Source: an uncultured Candidatus Saccharibacteria bacterium (GTDB taxonomy: Bacteria; Patescibacteriota; WWE3; UBA101185; UBA10185). Taken from it: a DNA stretch of 64,000 bases. Positions 1,457 to 11,323 of this stretch are shown one piece after another (position 1 is the first letter of the stretch; each line of letters starts with the position of its first letter). The translations under genes were made by a program, and so were the position numbers. The notes beneath the pieces are model-generated. The model made no database searches. It saw only the letters and a list, made by a program, of their open reading frames with translations, and had not been told where the DNA came from. Location of the stretch: positions 52,627 through 116,626 of the forward strand of contig CAZEBU010000001.1 in NCBI GenBank assembly GCA_964510435.1, given 5' to 3'.

Positions 1457-3189
1457 GACTTACCTCCTTCCAACACTGAACTTATTTTTTCCACAAGCTC
1501 CTCTACATAAAAAGGCCTTCCGTCGTATTTAATGAAATTATCCGTGATATCAAAGCCTGTCTGTTCTTTCACAATTCCCCGCATCTGCATAGTGAAGTTT
1601 GCCTCTATATTAACTACGTGCTTGGCTTTTTCTAAAACCTGCTTAACTGCCTCCATCGGAAAGGGACTAACCCAAGTCAAATGTAAGAAGTTTACATTAC
1701 TAAATTCTTTTAGAGCTTGTAGAATAGGCCCTTTATTGCTCCCCCAGGAAACCAGTGTCACCTCCGCTTGCTCCGGCCCAAACAACTGCGGTTGGGGCAT
1801 ATCCTCCTTTTTGCAGGTTTCCAATTTCTGCATTCTTTTCTCCATCTGTTGATTGCGGTTGTCTATTTCTTCGTTGGAAAATCCTATTTCATCATGCTCA
1901 TCCGAATTGGCAATAAAGAAATTACCTACACCGGGAATGCTTCTAGTGGAAATACCGTCTGCTTCCGGTTTGTATCTCCGATAGTTTTCATCAAATTCGG
2001 TAGTAAGTTTTCCACGGTTAATCTCGTAACGGGAAATATCAAACATGGCTACGCTCTGATCGCATTCGCAAATATCCTTGTTAATCAAAACTACTACCGG
2101 GGTCTGGTATTTTTCCGCTAAATTAAAGGCCTGCATGGTCATGTGGAAAGTTTCCTCTACATCACCGGGTGTTAAAACAATGCGCAGAAAATCATCTTGG
2201 TGAGCATGCAAAACAAATCTTAGATCCCCCTGAGCACTCCAAGTAGGAATTCCCGTACCGGGACCGCCTCGCATGCCTTCGATCATGACCACCGGAGTCT
2301 CCGTAATTCCTGCCAAACCATAACCTTCCGACATCAAACAAAAACCACCGCCTGAAGTAGCAGTCATAGATCTGGCGCCGGCAAAAGCTGCCCCCAAAGC
2401 CATATTTATAGCCGCTATCTCATCTTCGGGCTGCTTGTAGACATACTTGTATTCTTCCTGATGCTTAGCCAGCACATGCAAAATGTTGGAAATGGGTGAC
2501 ATAGGATAAATAGAGGCAAACTGCAATCCGGCTGAGATGGCTCCTAGGGCTACTGCTTCGTTACCGTTTAGCACCATCTTTGCCACAGAAGAATCTACGT
2601 TGCCTTCTAACTTAACGGTACTCTTCACTTGATGGGCATAATTTTCTTTCACGAAATTATAACCCAATTCAACCGCTTTTTGATCAGCTTTAACAATATC
2701 TTCACCCTTATCAGCATATTCTTCAGTCACAAGTTTTTTCATCACATGCAAATGCCCATCCATTAAAGCTGTGGCTGCTCCCAAGGCAACTATATTTATC
2801 AACAACTCTCCGCCTCCGGCATCTTTTGCCATATTAAATAAAGGTACGGGACACAAGTTAACCCCCGAGGGAACTTTTGAAGTATCAAGCTTACGATCAC
2901 CGTCAAAAATTATTCCGGATCCCTCCGCTAATTCTCCCAGATGAAAATCTATGGATTCCTGATTTAAAGCCACCAATAATTGCGTGGTCAAACTAGGCCC
3001 CGTAACTTCTTCCTTAGAAACATTGACTTGCATAACATTGTGCCCACCCTTAATGATGGAAGGGTACTCCACAAAGGTAAAAACGTTGTATCCAGACCTA
3101 CTGATAAATCTGGCAAAAGTGATCCCTGAAGATTTTATTCCTTGTCCGGCTTTACCGGCAATTTTAAAGGTAAATACATCTTGTTTCAT
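1453..3189 (-). CDS. 2-oxoacid:ferredoxin oxidoreductase alpha subunit with an N-terminal gamma domain (gamma-alpha fusion)
   Basis: The N-terminus FKIAGKAGQGIKSSGITFA is gamma-like, followed by the alpha core domains; total 578 aa. Confidence 0.85.
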   Translation of the reverse strand: MKQDVFTFKIAGKAGQGIKSSGITFARFISRSGYNVFTFVEYPSIIKGGHNVMQVNVSKEEVTGPSLTTQLLVALNQESIDFHLGELAEGSGIIFDGDRKLDTSKVPSGVNLCPVPLFNMAKDAGGGELLINIVALGAATALMDGHLHVMKKLVTEEYADKGEDIVKADQKAVELGYNFVKENYAHQVKSTVKLEGNVDSSVAKMVLNGNEAVALGAISAGLQFASIYPMSPISNILHVLAKHQEEYKYVYKQPEDEIAAINMALGAAFAGARSMTATSGGGFCLMSEGYGLAGITETPVVMIEGMRGGPGTGIPTWSAQGDLRFVLHAHQDDFLRIVLTPGDVEETFHMTMQAFNLAEKYQTPVVVLINKDICECDQSVAMFDISRYEINRGKLTTEFDENYRRYKPEADGISTRSIPGVGNFFIANSDEHDEIGFSNEEIDNRNQQMEKRMQKLETCKKEDMPQPQLFGPEQAEVTLVSWGSNKGPILQALKEFSNVNFLHLTWVSPFPMEAVKQVLEKAKHVVNIEANFTMQMRGIVKEQTGFDITDNFIKYDGRPFYVEELVEKISSVLEGGKS

Positions 3190-6065
3190 TAGATAAACCT
3201 CTCTGCATAAATTCTATCCTTAGAACACCCCGCGGCCAACAACAAGTCAGTCGCATCGGATATCATGGCACGATGTCCGCAGAGGTAAGCCGAGACTTTG
3301 CTCGCATCCTTATAATCCTCTTTGACATATTTGGTAATAAATCCCGTACACCCCTGCCATTCTTCTCCCGGTTCACAAACCACTATCCTGTAATCAAAGT
3401 TGGGGTATTTTTCTTTTAATTCCTTAAAATGATCCTCCCAAAATACCTCTTCCTGATAAGTTAGTCCAAAATAAAGTTTAACAGGTTTCTTTACACCGTA
3501 TTCCTGCAAAGCAGTGTCCATCATACATCTCACGGCACTCATACCGGAACCTGTGGCTAGCAGTAATATTTCCTCGCCCCCATCATCCTTGTTAAAGGTA
3601 AAGACTCCAAATGGTCCTAGAAAGGGTACCGTATCACCCGGTTTTAGGTTTTCAAAAAATTTAGAGCCCGGACCTCCCGGCCTAGTATCCACTAAAAGAT
3701 AAAACTTATTTGGCCCATCGTGTGTGGCAATAGAATAAGCTCTAATAGCATCGGGGGCTACCTTAACACTAATATATTGTCCCGGTTCGAAATTAAATGG
3801 CTCTTGGGTTTCCAGTTCGTAGTAATGATACTGACTTGCCAGCACTTGGTGATCTTTACAGGTGGCAACTTTCATCTGAGGGGGTACGGCTTTTACTGTT
3901 GCTTCCACCTCTTTCATGACTACTTTACCGTCTACCGCCCAGGCTTCGTCCATGGTGACAATGACGGGGTTGATCTCTATTTCCTCCGCTTCCGGGACCA
4001 TGGTTTCCAGCTTGCTTACTCGCACAATAAGATCGTATAGTTTTTCCATAGCATACTCCGGCTGGCTGTCATGCCCTTGTAATATTCCGTAGATCCTTGA
4101 TTTTTCCACCAGTTTCTTGGCTTGTGCTAAGTTAATAGGTAAAAGATGTAGATTTCTATCCGCGATCAATTCCGCGTAGGATCCTCCCGCGCCAAAAAGC
4201 ATCACAGCGCCAAAAGTGGGGTCGTGCTTAAAACCGACTATTACCTCGATCCCGTGTGGTATGTCTTTCTGGATCTGAAAAGACATATGGTCCTTGACGC
4301 CATCATGCAGCTGCTCCACTTTTCTTTCCATCTTATGCCAAGCATCATCAAGTTGTTCCTCATTAATAATCTCCGTAATTACCCCGCCTATATCTTTTTT
4401 ATGCAAGAGACCGGGTGAAGATAACTTGAGAACCACCGGCCATCCGTACTCCAGAGCAAATTCTTTAGCTTCCTCCAAATTACTCACTAGCCTTGTAGGT
4501 GGTGTCTTGATACCAACTGAAGATAAGATCTTATCTGCAGCTAGATTATCCAAAGTTTTGTGTTTTTCATTGATCGCCCTCTGAATAATTTGCCTAATAT
4601 CATCACCGCCTGTTTCCAGCTTGATCGACTCCTCAGGAGATGTGTCCTCCGGCGGTTCTTGCTGGACTTTTTTAAATTGCCACATCTTGCCTACAGCCCA
4701 GATAGCTCTTTCGGGAAACCTAAAAGAGGGTATTTTATAGGCGTTTAATTTATTTTCTCCTTCCGAAACTAGCTTTCCTCCCATAAAAGAACAAAAAATG
4801 GGTTTACCGTATTTCTTGGAAAGATTACCAATAACTTCTGCCGTTTTTTCGATCTGCGTCATTATCTGAGGTGTCAGAATAACTACTAGAGCATCCGCCT
4901 GATCGTTTTTTAGTATTATCTCCAGGGAATCGGCAAACCTATCAGCCAAAGCATCTCCTAAGATATCTACAGGATTCACAATACTGGCAGATCGCGGCAG
5001 AGCCTCCTTAAGCTTTCCTTTAGTTTCCTCATCAAACTCTGTCAGCTCCAACCCCTCTTCCACCACGGCATCGGCACTTATTACAGCCGGGCCTCCTGCG
5101 TTAGAGACAACTGCTACTTTAGGACCTTGAGGAAGATCCTCCCAAGCAAAAGCCCGCGCCAGATCAAAAAAATCTTCCAAAGTTTTACATCTAATAACAC
5201 CTGCTTGCTCTAAAACAGCTTCCATCACCGAATCCTCACCGGCAATGGCTCCTGTATGAGATTGCATTGCTTTAGCGGCCGCTTTAGTTTTTCCGGGCTT
5301 TATGATAAAAACAGGATCTTTCTTGGTAATTTTTCTGACTATCTCTAAAAATTCTCCGCCCCGAGAAATTGACTCCAAATAAAGTCCGATGGGATTTAAG
5401 TCGGATAGCCCTTCTCCGTTATGAGAAATCAGAGTGTTCTGTGATTGTTCGTAAAAATAATTTAATATGTGGTTTTCATTTAAACCTGCTTTATTTCCCA
5501 AGGTCACAAATTCGCTTATACCCACACCGTTAGAATTACACCAATCAAAAAGACTGGCAGCTATGGCACCTGATTGGGTGATAAATCTTAAATTACCTAC
5601 TTCTTTGACCGGCTCCCCAAAAGTCACATTAATCGGCGATAAATTATTTACAAAACCAAGACAATTGGGGCCCAAAAGGTTAATTTGGTATTTTTTCACT
5701 ATTTCCACCAAATCTTCCTCGAGTTCCTCCCCTTCTTGGCCGATTTCTTTAAATCCTGCCGATAAAACAACCACATTTCTTACACCTTTTTCACCTACCT
5801 CGTTAACCACCTGTAATACAGAGGATGCCGGGATAGCAATAACCACCAACTCGGGTACTTCGGACAAAGCGCTCACGTTTGGAAAAGTCTCTAATTCATT
5901 TATCTTTTCCGCATTTGGATTGATAGGATAAACTTTACCTTTATAACCCGAATTGATAATGTTTTTAAGGATGATTGCTCCTAACTTTTCAGGATTTCTG
6001 GAAGCCCCAACAACTGCTACTGAGGCAGGATAAAATAGCGATGTTACCTCTGTGGGCATATACAT
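3189..6065 (-). CDS. ADP-forming acetyl-CoA synthetase (NDP-forming acyl-CoA synthetase, alpha+beta fused) with a C-terminal ferredoxin-NADP reductase-like FAD/NAD(P)-binding domain
   Basis: The N-terminus has the CoA-binding motif SVAVVGASRNPEKLGAIILKN, followed by a succinyl-CoA-synthetase-like ligase domain and an ATP-grasp domain. The last ~245 aa carry the FNR signatures RAYSIAT (the RxYS FAD motif), ATGSGMSAV and YLCGHRAM. Confidence 0.75.
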   Translation of the reverse strand: MYMPTEVTSLFYPASVAVVGASRNPEKLGAIILKNIINSGYKGKVYPINPNAEKINELETFPNVSALSEVPELVVIAIPASSVLQVVNEVGEKGVRNVVVLSAGFKEIGQEGEELEEDLVEIVKKYQINLLGPNCLGFVNNLSPINVTFGEPVKEVGNLRFITQSGAIAASLFDWCNSNGVGISEFVTLGNKAGLNENHILNYFYEQSQNTLISHNGEGLSDLNPIGLYLESISRGGEFLEIVRKITKKDPVFIIKPGKTKAAAKAMQSHTGAIAGEDSVMEAVLEQAGVIRCKTLEDFFDLARAFAWEDLPQGPKVAVVSNAGGPAVISADAVVEEGLELTEFDEETKGKLKEALPRSASIVNPVDILGDALADRFADSLEIILKNDQADALVVILTPQIMTQIEKTAEVIGNLSKKYGKPIFCSFMGGKLVSEGENKLNAYKIPSFRFPERAIWAVGKMWQFKKVQQEPPEDTSPEESIKLETGGDDIRQIIQRAINEKHKTLDNLAADKILSSVGIKTPPTRLVSNLEEAKEFALEYGWPVVLKLSSPGLLHKKDIGGVITEIINEEQLDDAWHKMERKVEQLHDGVKDHMSFQIQKDIPHGIEVIVGFKHDPTFGAVMLFGAGGSYAELIADRNLHLLPINLAQAKKLVEKSRIYGILQGHDSQPEYAMEKLYDLIVRVSKLETMVPEAEEIEINPVIVTMDEAWAVDGKVVMKEVEATVKAVPPQMKVATCKDHQVLASQYHYYELETQEPFNFEPGQYISVKVAPDAIRAYSIATHDGPNKFYLLVDTRPGGPGSKFFENLKPGDTVPFLGPFGVFTFNKDDGGEEILLLATGSGMSAVRCMMDTALQEYGVKKPVKLYFGLTYQEEVFWEDHFKELKEKYPNFDYRIVVCEPGEEWQGCTGFITKYVKEDYKDASKVSAYLCGHRAMISDATDLLLAAGCSKDRIYAERFI

Positions 6066-6154
6066 AGTCTATTGAACTTTCTAATTTGTGTCAAAGGCAA
6101 AAACCCCTGTTTTATAGTCCTTAACACTAATGATAAGATAGTCTTGTAACTGCC

Positions 6155-7078
6155 ATGAAAAAGGTTTTTAAACTTTCAATTCTTATTATTTTCTTAACCA
6201 TCGCGGCTTATATTGCCATGCCCGCATATTTATTTGCTTCCAGGTGGATCAATTTCTCATTTTGCGACCAACCCATCACTTTTTCTGTTAATCATATAGA
6301 TCCCAGTTTTAATATTTCTAAAAAACAAGTAATAAAAGATGCCAGGGAGGCTGCAAACATTTGGAATAATCTAGCCAAGAAGACTATTTTCCTATACGAC
6401 CCTTCCTCAGCGTTGGATATAAACCTGGTTTACGATGAAAGGCAGAGCAACATTACGCAAATATCCGAAAAAAGAGAGCAGATCGACGAAAAACAAAATG
6501 AGCTTTCCTCCAGTGTAGAGGAATTCGAAGAGAGAAGAGAAAAGCTAACAGAGGATCTAGACAACCTAAACGAAGAAATCTCTTATTGGAACGAAAAGGG
6601 ACGTACCTCAAGGGACATTTATAACCAGCTGATCAGAAAGCAAAAAAATCTGCAAAAAGAGGTGGATAAGATCAACAAAATGGCCGAGCAGCTTAACACC
6701 ACGGCGGACCAGATAAACCAACAAATAACCTCCGTCAACAACAGCGTCAAAAAGTTTAACGAACTCCTTACCGTAAAACCGGAGGAGGGTGTTTATCTGG
6801 GAGGACCTAATAAAATAAATATTTTTATTTACGAGAACGAAACCAGCTTTAGACATACCGTAACCCACGAACTTGGACACGCATTAGGATTGGGCCACGT
6901 GGAAGAAGTGGACTCAATAATGTATCCCATTTCCTCAGAAAACTCGCGTGCCACCGAGGCGGATAGAAGGTTGCTGCAAAATTACTGCCTGGAGCAAAAC
7001 CGCTTAGACTTAATACTAAACGACTTAAAAAACATGTTTTATATACTTTATTCAGAAATAAATAATGTGGTAACATAA
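6155..7078 (+). CDS. membrane-anchored matrixin-like (M10 metzincin) zinc metalloprotease with a coiled-coil insert
   Basis: The N-terminus has a TM helix, and the sequence carries the HExxHxxGxxH motif HELGHALGLGH. It is divergent from the acd/por operon. Confidence 0.6.
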   Translation: MKKVFKLSILIIFLTIAAYIAMPAYLFASRWINFSFCDQPITFSVNHIDPSFNISKKQVIKDAREAANIWNNLAKKTIFLYDPSSALDINLVYDERQSNITQISEKREQIDEKQNELSSSVEEFEERREKLTEDLDNLNEEISYWNEKGRTSRDIYNQLIRKQKNLQKEVDKINKMAEQLNTTADQINQQITSVNNSVKKFNELLTVKPEEGVYLGGPNKINIFIYENETSFRHTVTHELGHALGLGHVEEVDSIMYPISSENSRATEADRRLLQNYCLEQNRLDLILNDLKNMFYILYSEINNVVT

Positions 7079-7083
7079 TTTCT

Positions 7084-7497
7084 ATGCGCAAAACAGTAAA
7101 ACTAATCCTCATAGGAGTTATTATAATAGCCGTTTTATCAATATTTAAAAATGAATCCATTGAAGACATTAAGTTAAGTGAAAATTTGCAAGATATAATT
7201 CCTCCCATTGAGCTCAACGACGCACGACATAACATGGTTAATTTCTCCGTTTGCGATCCTGAGGATAGTTTTTCCTTAGATACTGGGTTGGGTTCAGGTG
7301 GTATAAAAGTTGTTGGTCCAAAAGATGATCACTGCCTGGTAGAAACCCGTTATGAAATAGAGGGCGGTTACTTTATCAATGAATGCCGTATACCCCAAAA
7401 GCTGGGAGAAATGCAATTTGAAGAAACTAATTTTGACGAGCTAGCCCCATACTGCCAACTAAAAAATGAGGGGAACGCCCTTTTGGAGCTAAACTAA
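7084..7497 (+). CDS. hypothetical secreted or membrane-anchored small protein (4 Cys)
   Basis: An N-terminal hydrophobic helix; no recognisable domain. Confidence 0.3.
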   Translation: MRKTVKLILIGVIIIAVLSIFKNESIEDIKLSENLQDIIPPIELNDARHNMVNFSVCDPEDSFSLDTGLGSGGIKVVGPKDDHCLVETRYEIEGGYFINECRIPQKLGEMQFEETNFDELAPYCQLKNEGNALLELN

Positions 7498-7551
7498 TGG
7501 GCGATTATCTTTAGTTTCGAAACTAATATAAAATGTAGTTAGTAAACTGCT

Positions 7552-8799
7552 ATGCCTCAAGAAACTGCCGAAAACACAACTGCAGCAAAACAGCTGCAAA
7601 ATCCTACACTGACTAATTTGCTATCTACCCAGGATGTTGACCCCGTACAAGTCATTAATGCCATCCTGCACGAACTGGCCTATTTGCTGGCCTCCGATAT
7701 TTTGTTCGAGCCGGCTAAAGAAAAAGTGGTTATAAGAGCAAGAATTGACGGTGTGCTCTATAACGTGGGTGATATCGGTCATGACCTATATGCTGCAGTC
7801 TCTTCCAGAATTAAAGTTATTTGTGATCTTGATATAACCAGAAAAAGCCAGATCCAAGAAGGTCAGTTTACCGTCGAACATGAAAACGGCATTATCAATT
7901 TAAGGGTGGAGATAGTAGAAACGGTGCACGGCGAGTTGATCGTCTTAAGACTGCACGAAAAAAGAACCATTGTCATGAAGCTATCCGAATTGGGCTTTAG
8001 TAAAGACGCCTACGACAAGTACTGGAAAATGCTCGACCAAAAAAGCGGCTTAATACTGGTTTGCGGTCCAACCGGTACCGGAAAAACCACCACCATATAC
8101 TCAACTATTACGGCTATCAAGAAAAAGGGAAATTTTAATATCATGACCATTGAAGACCCCGTAGAATTTCATTTGCAGGATACCAACCAAATACAAACCA
8201 GCAAAGAAAGGGATTTCACCTTTGCGGCGGGCTTGAGAACCGTTTTAAGACTCAGTCCGGACGTTGTTTTTGTAGGAGAGATCAGAGATAAGGAAACAGC
8301 CGAAATTGCCGTAGAATCAGGGCTTACGGGATTGTTGGTTCTCTCCACTGTACACGCTGAAGATTCGGTAGGGGCTCTGTTTAGGATGCTCGACTTGGGA
8401 GTAGAGACTTATTTATTAAACTCATCTTTGGTGGGCATAGTTTCTCAAAGACTTGCTCGAAGAAACTGCCCTGTCTGTTTGGAAAGTTACACACCAAATC
8501 AGGAAGAACTAGATATATTTAACGGTATCATGGGAAGACCACCTACCAGATTAGTAAAATCAAAAGGTTGCCCTTCCTGCCAAAATCTTTCTTATAAAGG
8601 AAGGATCGGTATTTACGAAGTTTTAAGAATAGATGCCAAAGTGAGAGGACTGATCAGAAATAAAGCCAGCGAAGAAGAGTTTAGGGAAACTTTAAAACAA
8701 ATGAACTTCACTACTCTTCTAAGAGATGGCTTGCTCAAATGTGAGCAGGGTATTACTACCATTGACGAGGTTTTAAGAAACAGCTTAAGAGTCGAGTAA
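7552..8799 (+). CDS. GspE/PilB-family secretion/pilus-assembly ATPase (minimal form lacking the N-terminal GSPII domain)
   Basis: Walker A GPTGTGKTTT, the Asp and His boxes, and the tetracysteine motif CPVC...CPSC. Confidence 0.8.
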   Translation: MPQETAENTTAAKQLQNPTLTNLLSTQDVDPVQVINAILHELAYLLASDILFEPAKEKVVIRARIDGVLYNVGDIGHDLYAAVSSRIKVICDLDITRKSQIQEGQFTVEHENGIINLRVEIVETVHGELIVLRLHEKRTIVMKLSELGFSKDAYDKYWKMLDQKSGLILVCGPTGTGKTTTIYSTITAIKKKGNFNIMTIEDPVEFHLQDTNQIQTSKERDFTFAAGLRTVLRLSPDVVFVGEIRDKETAEIAVESGLTGLLVLSTVHAEDSVGALFRMLDLGVETYLLNSSLVGIVSQRLARRNCPVCLESYTPNQEELDIFNGIMGRPPTRLVKSKGCPSCQNLSYKGRIGIYEVLRIDAKVRGLIRNKASEEEFRETLKQMNFTTLLRDGLLKCEQGITTIDEVLRNSLRVE

Positions 8800-8840
8800 T
8801 CATCTTGCTAAATTCATGAAAATGTGGGAAGAATATTAGT

Positions 8841-9221
8841 ATGAACGCATTTATTACCAATATAGAAAATGAAACTTTAAGCAACGAAAATTTCCGTAAA
8901 GTCCTTTACACAGGCACCTATAGTCAACTGGCAGTGATGACCTTGCTTCCGGAAGAAGAAATAGGGGAAGAAATCCACCCTGATGTGGATCAATACATCA
9001 GGATACAAACAGGTGTAGCTAAAGTAATCATAGACGGCGAGGAATCGGTAGTAGGTCCGGACTACATTGTACTCATTCCCGCAGGAGCACGGCATAATGT
9101 GGTCAATGAATCAGTTGATGAGAACCTGAGATTATACACCATATATACACCACCCGAACACCCTAAGGGCACGATACATCGTTCGAAAGAAGAGGGCAAA
9201 AAGCACGAGCCCAGTCATTAG
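8841..9221 (+). CDS. cupin-domain protein
   Basis: A small beta-barrel signature (G-x5-H...H) and 126 aa. Confidence 0.45.
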   Translation: MNAFITNIENETLSNENFRKVLYTGTYSQLAVMTLLPEEEIGEEIHPDVDQYIRIQTGVAKVIIDGEESVVGPDYIVLIPAGARHNVVNESVDENLRLYTIYTPPEHPKGTIHRSKEEGKKHEPSH

Positions 9222-9255: not shown

Positions 9256-10827
9256 ATGAAAAAAGAAAAGATCTTTTTATCGCTTACTATCATATTAATC
9301 GTAGCCACTATCCTATTTATTACTCTTTTTTCGGATAAGGATAGGGAGGTTAGAAAAGAAAACAAAAGTCTTATCACAGAAACGCAAGACTTAGTAGCAA
9401 GCAATCTGGAAAACGCTTCCAAAAAAATAAGAAATTCTGCTGTTGCCGGACAATTCTACCCCGGAGAAGCGGAAGAACTAAGAACACAGATCAGAGGTTA
9501 CCTGGAATCTGCAGAAAAGATATACAAGGAAGGAAAAATCAGAGTACTCATAGCCCCTCATGCCGGATTAGATTTCTCCGGGAAAACTGCGGGTATGGCA
9601 TTTAAACAGATTCAGGGAGAAAAATACTCCAAAGTAATAGTCTTGGGTATTAACCACAAAGAACCTTTTAAACACGCGGCTGTCTTTCCCAGCGGAAACT
9701 GGGCAACTCCTCTGGGAAATGTACCCATAGACCAAGAGCTAGCTGCTAGAATCGTCAACGGCACGGATATCATTTTCGACACGCAAGCTCACAAAAATGA
9801 ACATAGCATAGAGATGGTGGTACTCTTTCTTAAAGAAGCACTGGCTGATTTCGAACTCGTGCCCATCATGCTGGGAGCACCAAAAGCGGATACTACTGAG
9901 AGGCTGGCTTACAAATTAGCCGGTGTCATGGATGAAGATACCTTAATTGTGGTCAGCACAGATCTCTCTCACTACCCTACCTGGGAAGTTGCCAATGAAG
10001 TCGACAGAAAAACGATAAATGGCGTACTCTCCGGCGAGGTAAAAAAACTTGACCATGCCTCTGCTTTTAATTACGCCAAAAAATATCCCGATTTAAGTAC
10101 CTCCGCCTGCGGATTCCAACCACTCAGAGTTAGTATGAGGGTCGCCGAGATACTAAATCTGGGCAAATTTACGGAAATCGACTATACCAATTCCGGGGAT
10201 ATAACCGGTAATAAAGAAAGGGTAGTGGGTTATGCGGCTCTTGGAGTCTGGAGTACCAGTTTGCAGAAACCTGTACTTGATAAAGAGGCTAGAGAAGAGA
10301 CCATAAAGCTGGCTAGAGATACCCTGGATGAATACTACCGAACTAATTTAAAAATGTACTACGAACCTAAAAGTGAGGTGCTTAAAAAACCAATTGGGGC
10401 TTTTGTTAGCATGTACAAATCAGATAGCCTTAGAGGCTCCATAGGGCGTTTTGACCCAGACATTCCTCTGTACGAAGTGATCCAAGATATGGCCATCGCC
10501 GCTGCAACCCAAGACCGCAGATTTACTCCAGTTAAAGAGGAGGAGCTTTCAGATATAGATATGGTGATATCTGTCATGGGTCCACTAGAAATTATTGATG
10601 ATTGGAGGAAAATTAAGCTTGGTGTACACGGAGTGAGGATTGTTCAGAATAGGAAAACCGGAGTTTTATTACCCCAGGTTGCTACAGATAATAATTGGGA
10701 CTTGGAAACTTTTCTAAATACTACATGTACTCAAAAGGCGGGCTTGGGAAGGGAATGTTACAAAGATCCTAAAGTCAAGATATATACTTTCGAAGCAGAC
10801 ATTATCAGGGAGCAGGAAACCCTATAG
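9256..10827 (+). CDS. fusion protein with an N-terminal TM anchor, a MEMO1-like domain (AmmeMemoRadiSam system protein B) and an AMMECR1 domain
   Basis: The N-terminal half reads AGQFYPGEAEELRTQIRGYLE...IAPHAGLDFSG, which is the Memo/dioxygenase class III fold. The C-terminal half reads GAFVSMYK...LRGSIGRFDP...DRRFTPV, which is AMMECR1. Confidence 0.7.
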   Translation: MKKEKIFLSLTIILIVATILFITLFSDKDREVRKENKSLITETQDLVASNLENASKKIRNSAVAGQFYPGEAEELRTQIRGYLESAEKIYKEGKIRVLIAPHAGLDFSGKTAGMAFKQIQGEKYSKVIVLGINHKEPFKHAAVFPSGNWATPLGNVPIDQELAARIVNGTDIIFDTQAHKNEHSIEMVVLFLKEALADFELVPIMLGAPKADTTERLAYKLAGVMDEDTLIVVSTDLSHYPTWEVANEVDRKTINGVLSGEVKKLDHASAFNYAKKYPDLSTSACGFQPLRVSMRVAEILNLGKFTEIDYTNSGDITGNKERVVGYAALGVWSTSLQKPVLDKEAREETIKLARDTLDEYYRTNLKMYYEPKSEVLKKPIGAFVSMYKSDSLRGSIGRFDPDIPLYEVIQDMAIAAATQDRRFTPVKEEELSDIDMVISVMGPLEIIDDWRKIKLGVHGVRIVQNRKTGVLLPQVATDNNWDLETFLNTTCTQKAGLGRECYKDPKVKIYTFEADIIREQETL

Positions 10828-10903: not shown

Positions 10904-11323
10904 ATGTTGTTGAAGAGAATCTTTTCGGTGATCTTCCCACCTATAGAGTTTGTGAAGGGAAAGCTGTACATTCGTGTGCTTAGTGGAAAACCGAAGCTGC
11001 TGTTCTACCCTGATGAGGATGTTCAATTCAATTACCGTAGCTTCCAAACGCAAGACCTTGTGCAGATGCTTTGGGGTGACTCTAAACCACATTTTGGTGG
11101 AGGCACTGATTTTGCACACCACGGAGAACAAATAGGATCACGGGTTCTGGTAGAGTTTCGGGAAGCCGGCGATGATGACATTCGTGCAATCTTTGACAAT
11201 TGGTCGGAGCAACATGGAATACCTACCATTGCAGAATTTTCTGACGAAGTGCAAAGACAATGCAACGATTTGTTAGCTAACGAGAAAGATCGTATAGCTC
11301 GCATTGCCGGAAACTATCAGTAA
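10904..11323 (+). CDS. hypothetical protein (139 aa) with locally elevated GC
   Basis: It has a good RBS (GAGAGGAG) and is followed by a clean hairpin terminator. About 46% GC against about 35% for its neighbours. Confidence 0.35.
   Translation: MLLKRIFSVIFPPIEFVKGKLYIRVLSGKPKLLFYPDEDVQFNYRSFQTQDLVQMLWGDSKPHFGGGTDFAHHGEQIGSRVLVEFREAGDDDIRAIFDNWSEQHGIPTIAEFSDEVQRQCNDLLANEKDRIARIAGNYQ

Follow-up and report, generated by a model that had tools for sequence, protein, structure and literature searches.

The stretch of DNA analysed here, hereafter the window, covers 64,000 nucleotides of contig CAZEBU010000001.1 (assembly GCA_964510435.1) from an uncultured Candidatus Saccharibacteria bacterium and contains, at 9256-10827, one genuine gene for a membrane-anchored protein of 523 amino acids (aa) in which a Memo domain is fused to an AMMECR1 domain. 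These domains are components B and A of the AmmeMemoRadiSam system, whose third component is a radical S-adenosylmethionine (SAM) enzyme (rSAM). With a probability of about 0.7, the protein represents a signal-anchored, probably surface-facing and stripped-down member of this system. The gene itself is a typical member of a large subfamily of fusions that is already annotated across many bacterial phyla, and what is particular to the window protein is a conserved partner-less context together with a unique Cys-to-Ser change. The features of the gene are as follows.

9256..10827, + strand: Memo-AMMECR1 (AmmeMemoRadiSam B/A) fusion open reading frame (ORF), ATG start, stop codon included, 523 aa
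9256..9333, + strand: N-terminal signal anchor, MKKEK and then a 21-residue uncharged hydrophobic run (residues 6-26)
9334..9435, + strand: polar, charged linker (residues 27-60), predicted local distance difference test score (pLDDT) 42-66, sequence and length differing between homologs
9436..10239, + strand: Memo domain (residues 61-328), from PF01875, TIGR04336, the MEMO1 alignment and Foldseek
10306..10803, + strand: AMMECR1 domain (residues 351-516), from PF01871, TIGR04335, the match to 1vaj and Foldseek
10438..10440, + strand: Ser395 codon TCC, at the position of the otherwise invariant LRGCIG Cys and one transversion from TGC

The original prediction of Memo-like and AMMECR1 domains fused in one 523-aa chain behind an N-terminal helix agrees with the ORF, Pfam and NCBIfam. 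Pfam matched Memo (PF01875) at residues 61-328 with an E of 2.4e-58 and AMMECR1 (PF01871) at residues 351-516 with an E of 1.2e-46, and both NCBIfam models of the system scored above their cut-offs, TIGR04336 AmmeMemoSam_B with 240.2 bits at residues 59-329 (cut-off 26) and TIGR04335 AmmeMemoSam_A with 146.8 bits at residues 349-516 (cut-off 99). The order of a hydrophobic anchor, then Memo, then AMMECR1 places the protein in the anchored B/A fusion subfamily. Homologs were collected by a protein search, which gave 1103 matches at E<=1e-10, the 120 best of which were examined, and by a genome scan with one genome per species, which gave at least 600 loci, the best 80 of which were analysed (loci are given as L numbers and homologs as P numbers).

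An assembly error or frameshift joining two separate genes would have a parallel in locus L063, where Memo and AMMECR1 lie in adjacent separate ORFs; no other support for such an artefact was found. It is ruled out by the identical 523-aa sequence on three further, independent contigs of up to 5.6 kb (two NCBI assemblies and one Logan assembly) and by the near-universal architecture of the homologs, with a single ORF in the 120 best matches and a full-length fused ORF in 78 of the best 80 loci. The confident structure model also runs unbroken across the domain junction, leaving an artefact a negligible chance. Both grounds on which the original prediction would have been withdrawn, an artificial fusion and a lack of support for either domain, are thus excluded, the latter by Pfam and NCBIfam.

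The fused B/A subfamily and its predicted fold

The original prediction had treated the fusion as a departure from the usual separate proteins, a view that does not survive comparison with the homologs. The 120 best of the 1103 matches all carry both Pfam domains and, one fragment excepted, are 460-548 aa long, and homologs are already named 'AmmeMemoRadiSam system protein B/AmmeMemoRadiSam system protein A' by the Joint Genome Institute (JGI). The fusion loci of the genome scan, at least 600 in number, come from Omnitrophota, Bacteroidales, Acidobacteriota, Saccharibacteria, Planctomycetia, Nitrospiraceae, Syntrophales, Anaerolineae and others, and the closest match among these species-representative genomes shows 42% identity. 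Neither is the fusion rare without its rSAM, as had been implied. Orphan fusions, with no rSAM nearby, are common: of 44 loci whose flanks reach at least 4 kb on each side, 14 (about one third) have no rSAM, and the window's clade has conserved this orphan state. The further claim that the fusion supports a functional interaction between Memo and AMMECR1 is reasonable, and a single-chain model with a predicted template modelling score (pTM) of 0.81 is compatible with it, although the naming of a three-gene system already implies such a Rosetta-stone argument for joint function. In a literature search, AmmeMemoRadiSam turned up only in gene tables. Burroughs and colleagues reportedly linked Memo contexts to nucleotide-base and isoprenoid modification in 2019.

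The AlphaFold2 model of the window protein was built with 29 homologs and reached an overall pLDDT of 90.7 with the pTM given above. It predicts a helix at residues 2-25 (block pLDDT 81-93), a low-confidence linker at about residues 27-56, and then two globular domains packed together. Using Foldseek, the model was matched to MEMO1 with template modelling (TM) scores of 0.80-0.81, the matches including crystal structures with iron and with copper bound, and to the archaeal AMMECR1 protein PH0010 (1vaj) with a TM score of 0.83 and a root-mean-square deviation of 1.3 Å. The sequence of the AMMECR1 domain likewise matched PH0010 with an E of 1.9e-24. In the alignment to MEMO1 (7kq8 and 3bcz), window residues H102, H134, D236, H239 and C285 fall on H49, H81, D189, H192 and C244, which we take to be the MEMO1 metal site with its two His and Cys ligands and its Asp/His pair. 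All five residues are invariant in the 29-sequence homolog alignment, and the alignments show that the Memo domain keeps the full predicted metal site of the MEMO1 type, His/His/Cys plus Asp/His.

Anchors, partners and membrane topology

The hydrophobic segment at residues 6-26 of the window protein has a 19-residue Kyte-Doolittle mean of 2.88. A start of MKK followed by a hydrophobic helix is common to the closest Patescibacteria homologs (P0002-P0013), which supports the annotated start codon. Membrane anchoring had been called unusual in the original prediction, yet a hydrophobic N-terminal segment precedes Memo in 63 of 78 genome-derived fusions, and an uncharged hydrophobic run of at least 15 residues is found near the N-terminus in 91 of the 120 best matches. 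Some of these signals are of the lipobox-plus-Cys type (e.g., LLSAC, LVSGC and FASC) and others look like cleavable signal peptides of the AxA type (e.g., ...IPASA/VIK and ...SVQA/AS), while the rest of the signal-bearing fusions have signal anchors resembling that of the window protein. Among 85 homologs with a non-lipobox hydrophobic N-terminus, the net charge averages +1.96 for the N flank as against +0.36 for the C flank; the N flank is more positive in 55, equal in 12 and less positive in 18. An N-in/C-out orientation is thus favoured by the family-wide charge bias and by the lipoprotein and cleavable signals of homologs, although the window protein's own bias is weak. Since members of the subfamily nearly always begin with an export or anchor signal, the catalytic domains are most likely outward-facing, and the best inference for the window protein is that its catalytic domains lie outside the cytoplasmic membrane.

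The partners encoded beside the fusion bear on the same question. Of the 80 loci, 47 have an rSAM gene with GCxxxCxxCQN in their flanks, in 29 cases directly upstream of the fusion and on the same strand, and all eight rSAMs tested passed TIGR04337 with 337-387 bits (cut-off 220). The N-terminal signals of the rSAMs, including those for twin-arginine translocation (Tat), were counted by manual reading; an automatic hydrophobicity cut-off under-called Tat signals. The counts are as follows.

20 loci: textbook RR Tat signal (e.g., MEGITRREFIKKAAVVGAGLGV)
6 loci: KR Tat-like signal, mostly in Bacteroidales and related Bacteroidota
1 locus: RRR and then a transmembrane segment
8 loci: hydrophobic anchor or Sec-type signal peptide, mostly in Omnitrophota, one in Planctomycetia
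12 loci: no signal

The curated Tat-signal model TIGR01409 was passed by two of the tested rSAMs, and no report of a Tat-exported or periplasmic radical SAM enzyme was found in the searchable literature. Seven of the RR-Tat enzymes, from several phyla (L044, L046, L053, L061, L067, L071 and L077), have a conserved AR[FY]W(x9-11)CxxCH module between the Tat signal and the rSAM core, which might attach haem c or bind a metal as a Cys knuckle. It gave no Pfam cytochrome match and only weak zinc-ribbon matches, and its assignment as a recognised cytochrome c domain is unsupported. The occurrence of signal-bearing rSAM partners in many phyla suggests an extracytoplasmic radical SAM system. The notion that an exported fusion is independent of rSAM is ruled out, as most signal-bearing fusions adjoin an rSAM, which is often signal-bearing as well. 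Examples of a Tat-signal rSAM directly upstream of the fusion, which lies at about 10001 in each locus, are found in L068, L049, L061, L044, L046, L053, L056, L077, L026, L034, L037, L039 and L060. A signal-less fusion is paired with a Tat-signal rSAM in L057 (512-2080 and 1989-3242), and it is possible that this fusion is co-exported by 'hitch-hiking' with the Tat rSAM.

Unbiased clustering of neighbours gave a second conserved partner, a polytopic protein of about 740 aa (about 700-850) with a central spermine/spermidine-synthase domain (PF01564, E 1.8e-30; NF037959 'fused MFS/spermidine synthase', 59 bits with a cut-off of 40). This spermidine-synthase-like protein is present in 38 loci, for example at L068 12745-14901 (-), L008 1300-3411 (+), L090 9500-11755 (-) and L092 9508-11736 (-), and absent from the window. 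Within Patescibacteria, the anchored fusions P0071, P0096 and P0105, on the long contigs L090-L092, lie in a full cluster in the order DsbD_2 (PF13386), a small 104-aa membrane protein, a 368-370-aa rSAM, the fusion and the spermidine-synthase-like membrane protein. The 104-aa protein is predicted to have three helices and is found between DsbD_2 and rSAM in L091 and L092, and the rSAM of L090-L092 bears its own MKK-plus-transmembrane anchor. DsbD_2 lies just upstream of the rSAM in L090 (6099-6734), L091 (5831-6451) and L092 (5941-6564), and also in L003, L005, L059 and L065; the seven loci with DsbD_2 homologs all encode an rSAM whose N-terminus is a non-Tat anchor or a signal peptide, never one of the Tat type or without a signal.

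No part of this partner set was detected in the window. CxxxCxxC was not found in any stop-to-stop ORF of at least 60 aa in the 64 kb, tblastn of 47 AmmeMemo-type rSAM queries against the 64 kb gave no match (best E 0.055), and a profile built from the 47 rSAMs gave no match there at E<=10. The earlier statement that no rSAM gene is nearby therefore holds for the whole window. By tblastn, DsbD_2, the 104-aa protein, the rSAM and the spermidine-synthase-like protein are none of them encoded in the 64 kb. The missing DsbD_2 and spermidine-synthase-like partners, like the Ser395 change, had gone unnoticed in the original prediction.

The same protein could also be read with the opposite topology, its N-terminal helix tethering the domains to the cytoplasmic face, where they would cooperate with a cytoplasmic or membrane-tethered rSAM encoded elsewhere in the genome and would reach a membrane lipid substrate from the cytoplasmic side. 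Radical SAM enzymes need an Fe-S cluster, SAM and a reductant, and all are cytoplasmic as far as is known. The weak charge bias of the window protein would fit this arrangement, with a net charge of +2 on the N side and +1 on the C side and with five K/R on the C flank as against three on the N flank, as would the rSAM partners of Patescibacteria, which bear the same non-Tat anchor, and loci L004, L015 and L021, which resemble the candidate phyla radiation and pair an anchored fusion with a signal-less rSAM. It is harder to reconcile with homologs bearing unambiguous export signals, whether lipobox-plus-Cys or cleavable-looking signal peptides, with partner rSAMs bearing Tat signals in many phyla, and with the positive-inside bias across the family, which points to N-in/C-out. 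Moreover, the DsbD_2-type protein is found with exactly those rSAMs that bear a non-Tat anchor or a signal peptide. A cytoplasmic-face location is thus judged unlikely, and outward-facing domains are preferred.

Several points nevertheless weigh against an outward-facing, stripped-down member of the system. Besides the window protein's weak charge bias with its K/R excess on the C flank, in eight loci the fusion bears a signal but the rSAM does not, and the two proteins therefore need not share a side of the membrane. The non-Tat-anchored rSAMs of Patescibacteria and Omnitrophota fit an outward topology awkwardly because we know of no route by which a protein exported unfolded could receive an Fe-S cluster or be supplied with SAM outside the cytoplasm, and the Patescibacteria versions may face the cytoplasm. 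Either these rSAMs are turned towards the cytoplasm, and the case for an outward location of anchored fusions in the two phyla would then be weaker, or something new occurs; the association with DsbD_2 hints at the latter. In addition, the missing partners were judged on 64 kb, and the rSAM and others could lie elsewhere in the genome. Finally, no biochemical function of any AmmeMemoRadiSam member was found in the searchable literature.

The partner-less clade and the Cys-to-Ser change

A conserved block that differs from the full cluster is shared by the window and its nearest relatives on long contigs, P0007, P0011 and P0028 (L084-L086). It consists, in order, of a fused acetate-CoA ligase/ferredoxin-reductase-like (FNR-like) gene on the opposite strand, an M10 peptidase, a protein of about 137 aa, a GspE-type ATPase, a cupin, the fusion and, again on the opposite strand, a TPR multi-pass membrane protein. 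The GspE-type ATPase and the cupin are absent from the block in L084. An AmmeMemo-type rSAM was not found within 10 kb in L084-L086, L087 or L088.

Within the AMMECR1 domain of the window protein, the hallmark LRGCIG reads LRGSIG, so that the motif with Cys is lacking. The comparison comprised about 196 homologs in all, that is, the listed homologs and the genome loci. Of 119 listed homologs that have the motif, 118 carry the Cys, the sole Ser being that of the window protein, and the Cys is present in 77 of 77 genome loci with the motif; by these counts, the Cys-to-Ser change is shown to be unique to the window protein among the homologs compared. Ser395 is not a random read error, since three other contigs translate to the identical protein. 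Given its Pfam E of 1.2e-46, the domain with LRGSIG classifies as a variant member of PF01871, not as a non-member. An explanation in which the change accompanies the loss of the rSAM is ruled out, as all 30 of the 30 other loci without a detected rSAM retain the Cys.

The absence of all known partners from the window and the Ser in place of an otherwise invariant Cys, which takes a single-nucleotide change, could both be expected of a decaying remnant, that is, a fusion that lost its original role after partner loss and in which Cys395Ser would be an early inactivating mutation. Yet the ORF is intact and full length, the structure model is confident, and all remaining invariant columns of the 29-sequence alignment are kept in the window protein, the whole Memo metal site included. 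The syntenic and likewise partner-less P0007, P0011 and P0028 keep intact, full-length genes with the Cys at 47-49% identity, which argues that the orphan state has been maintained over a long divergence, and the Cys is also retained in the 30 other loci without a detected rSAM. Decay is thus a very improbable account of the gene, and a functional, stripped-down member of the system remains the preferred one.

The immediate surroundings of the fusion agree with the earlier description of a cupin and a PilB-like ATPase as its neighbours.

3189-6065, - strand: acetate-CoA ligase/FNR-like gene, about 955 aa
7552-8799: GspE/PilB-type ATPase, 415 aa, intact
8841..9221, + strand: Cupin_2 gene, 126 aa, no signal (PF07883, E 5e-12), immediately upstream of the fusion
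10904-11323: ORF of 139 aa downstream of the fusion, with no family match and no homolog in related loci

The protein of about 955 aa is a fusion of an ADP-forming acetate-CoA ligase (alpha and ATP-grasp parts) with a C-terminal ferredoxin-reductase-like FAD/NAD-binding module. Its gene adjoins pyruvate:ferredoxin oxidoreductase genes and is conserved in the window's clade (L084 5709-8570, L085 3276-6146 and L086 3983-6844). In L085 the GspE/PilB-type ATPase is split into ORFs of 266 and 137 aa (8004-8804 and 8798-9211), probably by a frameshift or sequencing error. A Cupin_2 protein of 126-132 aa and 53-70% identity recurs beside or near the fusion in five Patescibacteria contexts, namely the window, L085 (9237-9617), L086 (9579-9977), L087 (11559-11939, -) and L090 (4056-4454); in L087 the other neighbours of the cupin and the fusion are unrelated to those of the window. 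This recurrence may reflect a functional link or leftover synteny.

Two further Patescibacteria loci were observed. The signal-less fusion of L089 (P0097; 8001-9449) lacks any partner and is syntenic with the full-cluster L090 (8001-9530), both having EF-P upstream and ferredoxin, DUF4446, IF-2 and RbfA downstream; L089 seems to have lost partners and anchor together, and recently. In L088, a stand-alone Memo of 264 aa (2435-3229, -) lies about 7 kb from a Memo-AMMECR1 fusion and is flanked by an alpha-2-macroglobulin-like protein of 1742 aa (3233-8461, -) and a PGA_cap protein (1309-2415, -).

Proposed role and comparison with known systems

As a surface-anchored and reduced member of the AmmeMemoRadiSam system, the window protein would sit N-in, C-out in the cytoplasmic membrane, a flexible linker of about 30 residues tethering its Memo and AMMECR1 domains to the outer face. 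The Memo domain would carry out Fe- or Cu-dependent redox chemistry on a substrate associated with the membrane or envelope, and the tightly packed AMMECR1 domain would bind or co-process the substrate of the Memo domain. It could be speculated that the membrane location fits a lipid substrate better. In this reduced version, the rSAM step would have been dispensed with or the partner genes would lie in other parts of the genome. In eukaryotes, MEMO1 and AMMECR1 occur without this rSAM, and a function independent of the rSAM would therefore have precedent.

A broader proposal can be put forward tentatively, in which fused B/A proteins mark a version of AmmeMemoRadiSam that works outside the cytoplasm and the window protein is its natural minimal, surface-anchored form. 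In diderms, the rSAM would be exported by Tat, sometimes with the additional AR[FY]W...CxxCH module, whereas in Omnitrophota and Patescibacteria an rSAM with a Sec-type signal or anchor would act together with a DsbD_2-type membrane protein, and the polytopic spermidine-synthase-like protein would complete the set in most lineages. The Memo-AMMECR1 enzyme of the window would then work without the rSAM step and tolerate Ser for the LRGCIG Cys. This wider scheme is rather doubtful as it stands.

The window gene alone carries little weight, adding a further copy of a fused, anchored protein that already has a database name, and the more interesting result is the family-level pattern of signal-bearing rSAM partners. 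The fused family in bacteria points to a substrate in the membrane or envelope and possibly to an extracytoplasmic rSAM, which would be unexpected; if this extracytoplasmic reading is true, radical SAM chemistry would occur outside the cytoplasm. One Patescibacteria clade also offers a natural experiment on partner dependence, the fusion having stayed intact after losing linkage to every other component. Because this clade keeps an intact fusion, it suggests that Memo and AMMECR1 have a function that needs no rSAM, as in eukaryotes. In humans, Memo and AMMECR1 are linked to disease but have no assigned molecular function. The Cys-to-Ser variant provides a ready handle on the role of the LRGCIG cysteine.

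Among known systems, the window protein is related first to AmmeMemoRadiSam (TIGR04335 for A, TIGR04336 for B and TIGR04337 for the rSAM). A and B are both present above their cut-offs, but they are fused in one anchored chain, and no TIGR04337 gene lies within the 64 kb. With the full cluster of Patescibacteria and Omnitrophota (L090-L092, L003, L005, L059 and L065) it has the fused anchored B/A protein in common, its identity to the fusions P0071, P0096 and P0105 being 38-39%, whereas none of the four partner genes of that cluster lies near the fusion in the window or in its syntenic relatives. Human MEMO1 (3bcz; 7kq8, iron-bound; 7l5c, copper-bound) shares the fold of the Memo domain at an identity of only about 23%. 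It is a soluble cytosolic eukaryotic protein without an AMMECR1 domain and without an anchor, both of which the window protein has. The archaeal AMMECR1 proteins PH0010 (1vaj), ST0229 (1wsc) and MM0484 (1zq7) share the fold of the AMMECR1 domain at 33-36% identity; they are stand-alone proteins with the LRGCIG Cys, whereas the window protein is fused and carries LRGSIG.

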